From an uncultured Clostridia bacterium (GTDB lineage: Bacteria > Bacillota > Clostridia > TANB77 > CAG-508): 64,000 nucleotides of DNA. The notes below the pieces were generated by a model. The model saw nothing but the letters and a program-made list of their open reading frames with translations, did no database searches and had not been told where the DNA came from. Every line of letters begins with the position of its first letter. The stretch's first letter is position 1. Below are positions 60,135-60,452 of the stretch, one piece after another. The stretch spans positions 153,210 through 217,209 of the forward strand of contig CALXWW010000001.1 in NCBI GenBank assembly GCA_944392545.1. The letters are read 5' to 3'. The position numbers and the translations under genes are program-made.

Positions 60135-60452
60135 GCCACTTTAGCTCAGTTGGTAGAGCAACTGACTTGTGGGATAGATAAAACTTAAGTTTTATTTTGA
60201 ACTATCTTGCACCTATATATGGAAACGTATATAGTGGACACCGCTAATTCGGGGAAAGCTAAATAATATTATATGCTAATCCCGAGCTAGGAGAGAGTAA
60301 TAATCTTCGAGTGTAGAGACTTTATACGGTGTACCTAAAGCAAATAAGCTATGGTAAAGAGAAAGTCCAGACTACAAACACCTTTGGTGGTAATGAAAAT
60401 TATAGTAGTATGAATCAGTAGGTCGTCCGTTCAAGTCGGACAAGTGGCTCCA
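60135..60452 (+). tRNA. tRNA-Thr (anticodon TGT) interrupted by a group I intron after position 36
   Basis: Exons GCCACTTTAGCTCAGTTGGTAGAGCAACTGACTTGT | AATCAGTAGGTCGTCCGTTCAAGTCGGACAAGTGGCTCCA splice to a canonical tRNA-Thr(UGU). A 242-nt insert (60171-60412) separates them. Confidence 0.8.
60171..60412 (+). ncRNA. Group I self-splicing intron (IC3-like, tRNA-type)
   Basis: Core elements: AATTCGGGGAAAGCTAAAT (compare Azoarcus/Anabaena AAUUCGGCGAAACCUAAG), GAGTGTAGAGACTTTATACGGTGTACC (GUAGAGACU J6/7-P7 region), CCTAAAGCAAATAAGCTATGGTAAAGAGAAAGTCCAGAC (compare Anabaena GGGUAAAGAGAGAGUCCA). It ends in G before the 3' exon. Confidence 0.7.

Follow-up and report, generated by a model that had tools for sequence, protein, structure and literature searches.

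Bacterial transfer RNA (tRNA) genes that are interrupted by group I introns have been catalogued in two surveys. Williams (2020; bioRxiv 10.1101/2020.01.27.920355) reported 5,292 split tRNA genes and raised the number of classes from four to 21 (including Thr.5Ug, interrupted between tRNA positions 36 and 37, hereafter 36/37, and Thr.3Ug); the same report notes that the classical tRNA intron varieties are labelled IC3 by a group I intron database, that 0/12 Rfam seeds of the original Intron_gpI model were bacterial, and that a tRNA-intron threshold of its own (18-20 bits) was used. In 4,934 complete genomes from 18 phyla, Nakagawa et al. [quoted passage not shown] Here we analyse a 64,000-nucleotide stretch of DNA (hereafter the window, to which all coordinates refer) from an uncultured Clostridia bacterium (GenBank assembly GCA_944392545.1, contig CALXWW010000001.1, positions 153,210 to 217,209), in which a tRNA-Thr(UGU) gene is split by a 242-nucleotide (nt) intron and followed by an HNH endonuclease pseudogene. 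This intron is apparently the representative of a new, well-populated and previously undescribed family within a known kind of element; full-text searches, whose coverage stops short of the phylum breakdown of Williams (2020) and of Table S5 of Nakagawa et al. (2026), found neither a Clostridia tRNA-Thr(UGU) intron nor its HNH partner described. A first-pass annotation of the locus, made from its letters alone, had listed as known hosts just tRNA-Leu and tRNA-fMet of cyanobacteria and tRNA-Ile and tRNA-Arg of proteobacteria, a list that is outdated by the 21 classes (Thr among them), and had regarded a threonine and a Firmicute host as unusual, for which we find no support: the intron is widespread in gut Clostridia and Bacilli, and tRNA introns span the 18 phyla mentioned above.

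Judging by similarity to the seed alignment published by Williams (2020), used in place of a formal subgroup classifier, the tRNA-Thr(UGU) intron is a member of the classical IC3 tRNA intron lineage (identity over aligned positions: 79% to the Arg.5Ug seed, 76% to Leu.3Ug of the cyanobacterial-type tRNA-Leu, 71% to the Thr.5Ug seed Rba53 and 68% to Azoarcus). With the tRNA-Arg(CCU) 36/37 intron (Arg.5Ug, Agrobacterium-type IC3, seed Bbo3) it has in common the site after U36 and before A37, the U·G pair in P1 and the omega-G, together with the GAAA loop of P2, the P4/P5 segment AAUUCGGGGAAAGCU, the P7 strand GUGUAGAGACU, the J8/7 stretch AAGAGAxAGUCCAGAC and a P9 three-way junction ending in ..GAAA..GURGUAUG. 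It differs from this class in its host (Thr(UGU) of Bacillota gut bacteria, as opposed to Arg(CCU) in Pseudomonadota), in its internal guide sequence (IGS) GCA, in an extended P1 with an extra hairpin, in the 11-nt-receptor-like motifs of P8 and P5, and in its association with an HNH gene. The tRNA-Ile(CAU) intron of Azoarcus (IC3, structure solved) resembles it in the 36/37 site, the 3-bp exon-IGS pairing, the small size and the core strings, but has a simple hairpin as P9, a minimal P1, a very GC-rich sequence and no endonuclease. As for the threonine classes, Thr.5Ug shares the isotype, the 36/37 site and the U(-1)/omega-G combination, and both Thr.3Ug and the 36/37 introns of Patescibacteria tRNA-Thr(GGU) share the isotype; Rba53 (which is GC-rich) and the Patescibacteria cases, however, interrupt anticodon GGU and not UGU. 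The latter are furthermore divergent, group with IA introns in the tree of Nakagawa et al. (PMC13011429) and are invisible to RF00028.

A tRNA-Thr(UGU) gene split at position 36/37

The gene consists of a 36-nt 5' exon (60135-60170; tRNA positions 1-36, GCCACTTTAGCTCAGTTGGTAGAGCAACTGACTTGT) that ends in the anticodon U34 G35 U36 (...ACTGACTTGT), a 242-nt IC3-type group I intron (60171-60412; GGGATAG...GTAGTATG) that begins with G and closes with the omega-G at 60412, and a 40-nt 3' exon (60413-60452; positions 37-76, AATCAGTAGG...GGCTCCA) in which CCA is encoded, all on the + strand. The insertion point thus lies between U36 and A37, and the spliced anticodon loop is CUUGUAA, with the canonical 7 nt. 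In its intron mode, ARAGORN reports tRNA-Thr(tgt) i(37,242) at exactly 60135-60452, confirming the earlier proposal of two tRNA-Thr halves that flank a 242-nt insert, while the junction placed after nt 36 is borne out both by the ARAGORN boundaries and by the U·G wobble in P1 (see below); the insert also ends in G, as had been stated.

The split gene is missed by default ARAGORN and by an Rfam scan of the whole window at gathering thresholds. A sensitive Rfam scan of 60050-60550 (501 nt) matches Intron_gpI (RF00028) over the full model (1-253) with 43.4 bits (E=7.4e-10); of the covariance-model check suggested in the first-pass annotation, the full-length match stands, and the score stays under the 50-bit gathering value, which is an operational cut-off and not a defining property of group I introns. 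The group I core strings singled out in that annotation (AATTCGGGGAAAGCTAAAT, GTAGAGACT and GGTAAAGAGAAAGTCC) are all present in the insert, and its comparison with the tRNA introns of Azoarcus and Anabaena is fully supported. No uninterrupted tRNA-Thr(UGU) was found in the 64-kb window or in any locus of the family, a search scope smaller than the whole genome, and ACA makes up 56.5% of the threonine codons in 25 long open reading frames (ORFs) of the window.

Intron anatomy

The helices were mapped by hand, and RNAalifold was run independently of the hand-drawn structure (all elements below are on the + strand). As a single sequence, the intron folds more stably than all of 100 shuffles (z = -3.4). 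Its GC content is about 30% (36% in the region matched by Intron_gpI), and its architecture is compact, with P2 present and the P5abc extension absent. P1 and its extension pair the exon UGU and intron GGGAUAG (60168-60177) with CUAUCUUGCA (60202-60211), in agreement with RNAalifold; within this helix, exon U34-G35-U36 (60168-60170) pairs with G75-C76-A77 of the IGS (60209-60211, GCA) through a U36·G75 wobble, which locates the P1/IGS pairing that had gone unseen in the first-pass annotation. An extra hairpin inside P1 (P1a, 60178-60184/60189-60195) carries compensatory changes and is recovered by RNAalifold.

P2 (60213..60234, 9 bp) has compensatory changes in 7/9 pairs and is capped by a nearly invariant GAAA tetraloop (60222-60225). 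P3 (60238-60243/60327-60332, with 3 compensatory pairs) encloses P4, P5, P6 and the 5' strand of P7: P4 (60249-60254/60280-60285) is invariant and agrees with RNAalifold, P5 (60258-60259/60275-60276, 19/42 compensatory) contains the receptor-like internal loop CUAAA..UAUG, P5a (60263-60265/60270-60272) comes from the hand map, and P6 (60286-60288/60310-60312) continues into P6a (60290-60294/60304-60308, with 5 compensatory pairs). The P7 pseudoknot, formed by G60316 and GACU (60318-60321) with AGUCC (60364-60368) around the bulged A60317, is presumed to contain the guanosine-binding G-C pair; its columns and those of J8/7 (AAAGAGAA, 60356-60363) agree exactly with the core of IC3 introns in the literature. 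P8 (60333-60335/60353-60355 and 60339-60341/60348-60350, 4 pairs compensatory) bears the 11-nt-receptor-like motif CCUAAA...UAUGG, which was taken straight from the sequence and set beside P8 of Azoarcus. The P9 three-way junction is built of P9 (60371-60375/60405-60409), P9a (60379-60382/60386-60389) and P9b (60390-60394/60399-60403, GAAA loop at 60395-60398), each with compensatory changes and each recovered by RNAalifold, and is followed by the terminal AUG of the intron with the omega-G at 60412 (..GURGUAUG in all family members). The anticodon stem (27-31 with 39-43) is able to form together with P1.

In the Azoarcus intron, P8 holds a CCUAAG..UAUGG receptor for the GAAA of L2, and P5 a receptor for another GAAA loop; the same layout is seen here, where the P8 and P5 motifs of the tRNA-Thr intron look like these tetraloop receptors. 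Two GAAA tetraloops facing receptor-like motifs suggest a self-sufficient fold.

Conservation and covariation across relatives

A scan of species-representative genomes (one genome per species) with the pattern TAGAGCRNYTGACTTGTB, i.e. the 5' exon and then any base but A (a final B that left out introns beginning with A), gave 120 listed matches, among which at least 47 species-representative genomes share both this intron and its insertion site. The hosts of these loci are nearly all uncultured Clostridia known from gut metagenome-assembled genomes (MAGs), including Clostridium sp. CAG:245, CAG:492 and CAG:508, along with a few Bacilli MAGs, in keeping with the Firmicute host assumed in the first pass; the closest relative among the matches listed (L088) is 96% identical. 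About 70 of the 120 were set aside as chance matches lacking tRNA context, and three more (L024, L056 and L035) have a tRNA context but are something other than this intron. In a second scan, for metagenome contigs with the invariant core 18-mer GTGTAGAGACTTTATACG, 81 of the 120 contigs listed harbour the tRNA-Thr(UGU) 36/37 intron, including subfamilies whose intron starts with A. Two others (L166 and L168) carry the same intron family at 36/37 of tRNA-Thr(CGU), and there the IGS reads GCG, as against GCA with the UGU anticodon; this joint change of IGS and anticodon is a compensation between exon and intron and confirms the P1 assignment. We also searched for intron-less alleles and other contexts through the conserved DUF1858 neighbour of the cluster, which returned only the same species, most contigs breaking inside the tRNA cluster.

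For covariation, 42 distinct pre-tRNAs (species-level sequences) were aligned. The structure made up of P1-P9 and the cloverleaf is 99.0% paired, in comparison to 34-39% after the 3' partners have been shifted by 1-3 columns, and compensatory changes occur in 41/97 pairs; the observed values were matched by 0/500 shuffles on four of the five measures, and by 16/500 for further pair types. Compensatory changes affect P1 (columns 39/73 pass from G-C to A-U in 10 sequences), P1a, P2, P3, P5, P6, P8, P9, P9a and P9b, whereas P4, P7 and J8/7 show zero variation and U36·G75 is invariant in 42/42 sequences. RNAalifold recovers P1, P1a, P2, P3, P4, P5, P6a, P8, P9, P9a, P9b and the four tRNA stems, without the pseudoknotted P7 and the basal P6. 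All four tRNA stems are 100% paired, the acceptor stem pairs covary between the 5' and 3' exons, and the T-stem is compensatory in 4/5 pairs. Since the exons covary in this way, and since ACA is the most frequent threonine codon, the tRNA appears to be under selection and needed. The split gene recurs, and shows compensatory changes, in over 100 independent contigs, which lies far beyond chance.

HNH genes beside and inside the intron

Downstream of the split gene lies a free-standing HNH endonuclease pseudogene (60515-60904, + strand), which overlaps the start of the following SDR gene (60870). It is disrupted by two compensating indels, -1 in a T-run (~60574) and +1 in an A-run (~60618), and by the in-frame stop that lies between them (60608-60610). 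Homopolymer sequencing error was considered as the source of the frameshifts and rejected, as the identical indels are present in 4 independent short-read assemblies; the window copy is therefore a true pseudogene. Once repaired, it scores 25.4 bits against Pfam PF01844 (HNH; cut-off 21.4), and the intronic, free-standing and repaired copies together span 23.9-25.4 bits; the motifs EHIDGN and CPNCH are invariant across the copies compared. NCBIfam yields only a sub-threshold IscB-HNH similarity, and a sequence search of the Protein Data Bank (PDB) with the HNH profile returned no related solved structure.

In Clostridia the HNH gene starts 53-100 nt downstream of the tRNA. At least 9 loci have an intact gene (128-134 aa) at this position; in about 8 further ones it is truncated, in about 6 only remnants are left, and others (L088 among them) lack it, a pattern that fits a selfish gene being gained, decaying and being lost. 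Four HNH proteins could be traced to 13 places, with a split tRNA-Thr directly upstream in 13/13 and a constant synteny (TraG-like, DUF1858, tRNA-Lys-Glu-Thr, HNH, SDR, CBM53, LexA-like). In the Bacilli-type tRNA-Thr (acceptor stem GCCGAAA), the intron measures 583-659 nt and the HNH gene sits inside loop L5 in all long introns; these intronic copies belong to the same family as the window HNH (60-64% identity), and their C-terminus (..SLYGNPEL) is encoded by the P5'/P4' core TATGGCAATCCCGAGCT, which holds in three P1 subfamilies.

The HNH family also has at least 549 members in IMG/VR, almost all within tRNA gene arrays on viral contigs. In the viral copies (L276-L355) a tRNA gene typically begins no more than a few tens of bases past the HNH stop, and the HNH gene often lies directly upstream of an uninterrupted tRNA-Thr(UGU), the anticodon stem of which differs from the bacterial one. 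Several of the HNH-adjacent viral tRNA-Thr(UGU) genes are 83-86 nt long and have an extended variable region.

Free-standing homing endonucleases are known from the collaborative homing of the cyanophage psbA intron/F-CphI system and from SegB in the tRNA cluster of T4. The present arrangement is similar in that the endonuclease gene is located outside an ORF-less intron and adjoins the interrupted gene, and in that the family is enriched in viral tRNA arrays; unlike in these precedents, the gene concerned is a housekeeping tRNA gene on a bacterial chromosome, a sister lineage also has the endonuclease family within the intron, and cleavage is putative. In our reading, the HNH proteins would constitute a family of tRNA-cluster homing endonucleases, linked to the intron in two ways (beside the gene and inside L5).

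Proposed mechanism and alternative explanations

We consider it highly probable that the locus is a working tRNA-Thr(UGU) gene with an IC3 intron at 36/37, characterized by guanosine-dependent splicing, vertical inheritance and HNH-assisted mobility; the intron very probably splices itself out. According to this proposal, the split tRNA-Thr would be transcribed together with tRNA-Lys and tRNA-Glu, and the intron would fold into P1-P9, so that an external guanosine held in P7 could attack the phosphodiester after U36, where the U36·G wobble of P1 marks the 5' splice site. U36, its 3'-OH now free, would in turn attack after the omega-G (60412), with the anticodon stem and a 2-bp P10 holding the exons together, and the product would be a mature tRNA whose anticodon loop reads CUUGUAA. 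Within this lineage the intron itself would be passed on vertically, at a syntenic locus that stays fixed, and the HNH gene most likely gave, or still gives, DNA-level mobility (homing) to the intron and the tRNA region.

Several observations weigh against this proposal. Both the splicing activity and the endonuclease function are ones that we infer, starting from the observed anatomy, conservation, covariation and gene association. The Intron_gpI score is below the curated gathering cut-off, the whole-window scan being without a match; P10 comprises just 2 bp (A37 and A38 with U74 and U73); P7 has no covariation, and it and P4 are supported by homology alone, because nothing varies there; and a second copy of tRNA-Thr(UGU) may exist elsewhere in the genome. 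With regard to mobility, the window HNH is a pseudogene and any homing is therefore not current here, the 13 HNH places come from related genomes with shared synteny and hence reflect a stable linkage and not independent events, and, with viral HNH genes lying beside uninterrupted tRNA-Thr(UGU), the endonuclease may be tied to tRNA clusters in general and not specifically to the intron.

Some of these points would also be expected if the locus were a dead or decaying pseudo-tRNA with an intron relic, the work being done by a second, uninterrupted tRNA-Thr(UGU): such a copy could lie outside the window and the family loci, the Rfam score is under the gathering threshold, and the neighbouring HNH gene has decayed. 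We nevertheless hold this to be very unlikely, given that 99% pairing, 41 compensatory pairs and an invariant catalytic core over 42 sequences are unexpected for a pseudogene, that neither the 64-kb window nor the family loci contain an intact tRNA-Thr(UGU), and that ACA is the main threonine codon. The notion that two tRNA halves were joined around unrelated sequence by an assembly artefact or chimera could appeal to the metagenomic origin of the window and to the frequent breakage of contigs of this species inside the tRNA cluster, yet it is effectively refuted: four independent samples from the BRZ gut cohort agree with 99.8-100% identity over 60135-60452 and its surroundings, from which it follows that the split gene is not an artefact, and homologous split genes are present in more than 100 contigs of different projects. 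A somewhat more serious, albeit improbable, alternative is that the intron is removed in vivo but needs a host- or HNH-derived protein cofactor, or acts as a regulated gate on the supply of tRNA-Thr. Its AT-rich fold (36% GC in the matched region), short P10 and unusual P1 extension are compatible with such a dependence, and regulatory roles of tRNA introns have been speculated on by Nakagawa et al. (2026; PMC13011429), whose report on the other hand describes in vitro validation of 35/36 introns. The small IC3 architecture, the self-splicing of the Azoarcus and Anabaena tRNA introns in published work and the two GAAA tetraloops facing receptor-like motifs likewise argue for autonomy; furthermore, loci whose HNH gene has gone or decayed still have an intact intron, which thus does not depend on the HNH protein.

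For the HNH gene itself, it is conceivable, though we would not favour it, that it is unrelated to the intron, i.e. a selfish tRNA-cluster endonuclease that landed by tRNA-Thr, with the intron spreading by vertical descent only. The relatives in viral arrays next to many different and mostly uninterrupted tRNAs are in line with this, as is the syntenic Clostridia locus (consistent with vertical descent); it is hard to reconcile, in the absence of a functional link, with the presence of the same HNH family inside L5 of the same intron family, in three P1 subfamilies and with a C-terminus drawn from the P5'/P4' core, and every sampled chromosomal copy adjoins a split tRNA-Thr. Within the proposed HNH-assisted mobility, we tentatively put forward a two-part homing model, in which the free-standing HNH would cut the intron-less tRNA-Thr(UGU), the intron would shield the host allele and be co-converted with the HNH gene, and the L5 form of Bacilli, with its C-terminus fused to the P5'/P4' core, would be the end state. 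If this were true, the two lineages would offer a natural before-and-after series of an ORF-less group I intron becoming mobile.

Related introns on viral contigs

The core 18-mer also matches 18 IMG/VR contigs, and the viral-contig introns match the family hidden Markov model (HMM) at E-values of 1e-18 to 1e-25. Six of these contigs (L121, L122, L133, L134, L136 and L137) contain related IC3-type introns at 35/36, the spliced loop of which (CUCUAAC/CUCUAAA) has the anticodon CUA of an amber suppressor; further amber-suppressor candidates are L124, L128/L130/L138 (which look like tRNAs with a long variable arm and have the same CUA anticodon), and the metagenome contigs L144, L238 and L251. 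P1 of the CUA-tRNA introns (GCUCU|..GGAGC, with a U·G wobble) is convincing. Related introns were additionally observed in tRNA-Asn(GUU), both in IMG/VR (L127 and L131, read as CTGTT|...ATG|AATCCGT, i.e. 36/37) and in metagenomes (L142, L179, L207 and L248). The splice sites of the viral tRNAs were assigned by eye from the P1 pairing, brute-force ARAGORN enumeration being too permissive. An E-value-based Rfam scan of six loci (five of them viral contigs; 51 kb in total) gave no Intron_gpI matches, which is uninformative, filter loss being the probable cause.

According to a 2014 review, all phage introns then known sat in protein genes; to judge by the sequences of these contigs, phage-encoded tRNA genes are hosts of group I introns as well, contrary to that summary. 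The phage-recoding literature examined makes no mention of introns in phage suppressor tRNAs. Among GenBank phages, only two partial matches to the 3' half of the intron were found (LR756501.1 and LR756503.1, 190296-190393, 75.5% over 100 nt), both in unannotated 735-kb 'uncultured phage' records. On L137, a contig with a split suppressor tRNA, Rfam places a RAGATH-1 hammerhead ribozyme (1367-1437, - strand) at 56.1 bits, next to a threshold of 56.3, and L128 has a sub-threshold match to cow-rumen-3 RNA (6860-6959, - strand) within a large tRNA array.

Consequences for annotation and intron evolution

As default ARAGORN and the Rfam gathering thresholds skip the gene, MAGs of these Clostridia and Bacilli lineages appear to be without tRNA-Thr(UGU). 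This gap concerns the decoder of the most-used threonine codon in common gut Clostridia and Bacilli, and can bias estimates of MAG completeness and codon capacity. A well-populated and covariation-rich family joins the bacterial tRNA introns, the list of which is growing, and the two HNH configurations (beside the gene and inside the intron) could be used for testing models of how group I introns acquire homing endonucleases; current views on the nature of group I introns and on their possible locations are left unchanged.

Genomic neighbourhood and an unrelated repeat

The split gene is the last member of a co-oriented cluster, in which tRNA-Lys(UUU) (59944-60019, + strand) and, directly upstream of the split gene, tRNA-Glu(UUC) (60056-60130, + strand) are common to all relatives and are reported by both default ARAGORN and the Rfam gathering scan. 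A promoter-like site (TTGACA-17-TAAAAT, 59877..59905, + strand) precedes the cluster and is the best of the region as a consensus match (11/12 positions). Beyond the 3' exon, a terminator-like hairpin (AAGAAGAACU / AGUUCUUCUU, 60460-60493, + strand; 10 bp with a 9-nt loop), followed by a T-run, was read from the sequence; it is missing from the automated scan output, the loop limit of which is 8. Conjugation-type genes (55882-59311, - strand), a neighbourhood conserved in all relatives examined, immediately precede the DUF1858 gene and the tRNA cluster; they include a 621-aa protein with faint TrwB/TraG-like Pfam matches (57446-59311, - strand) and several small membrane-protein ORFs.

Lastly, a repeat with TAGAGCAATTGACTTGTTTTTTAGCTATTC and a conserved upstream TAAATTTACACGCGCTAAA is present in at least 14 copies in one Synergistaceae MAG, JAISLU01 (loci L005, L011, L013, L017, L029, L031, L063, L076, L078, L087, L112, L116 and L117). 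By its appearance this is a multi-copy element with a tRNA-like fragment, and it was dismissed as having no relation to the intron.

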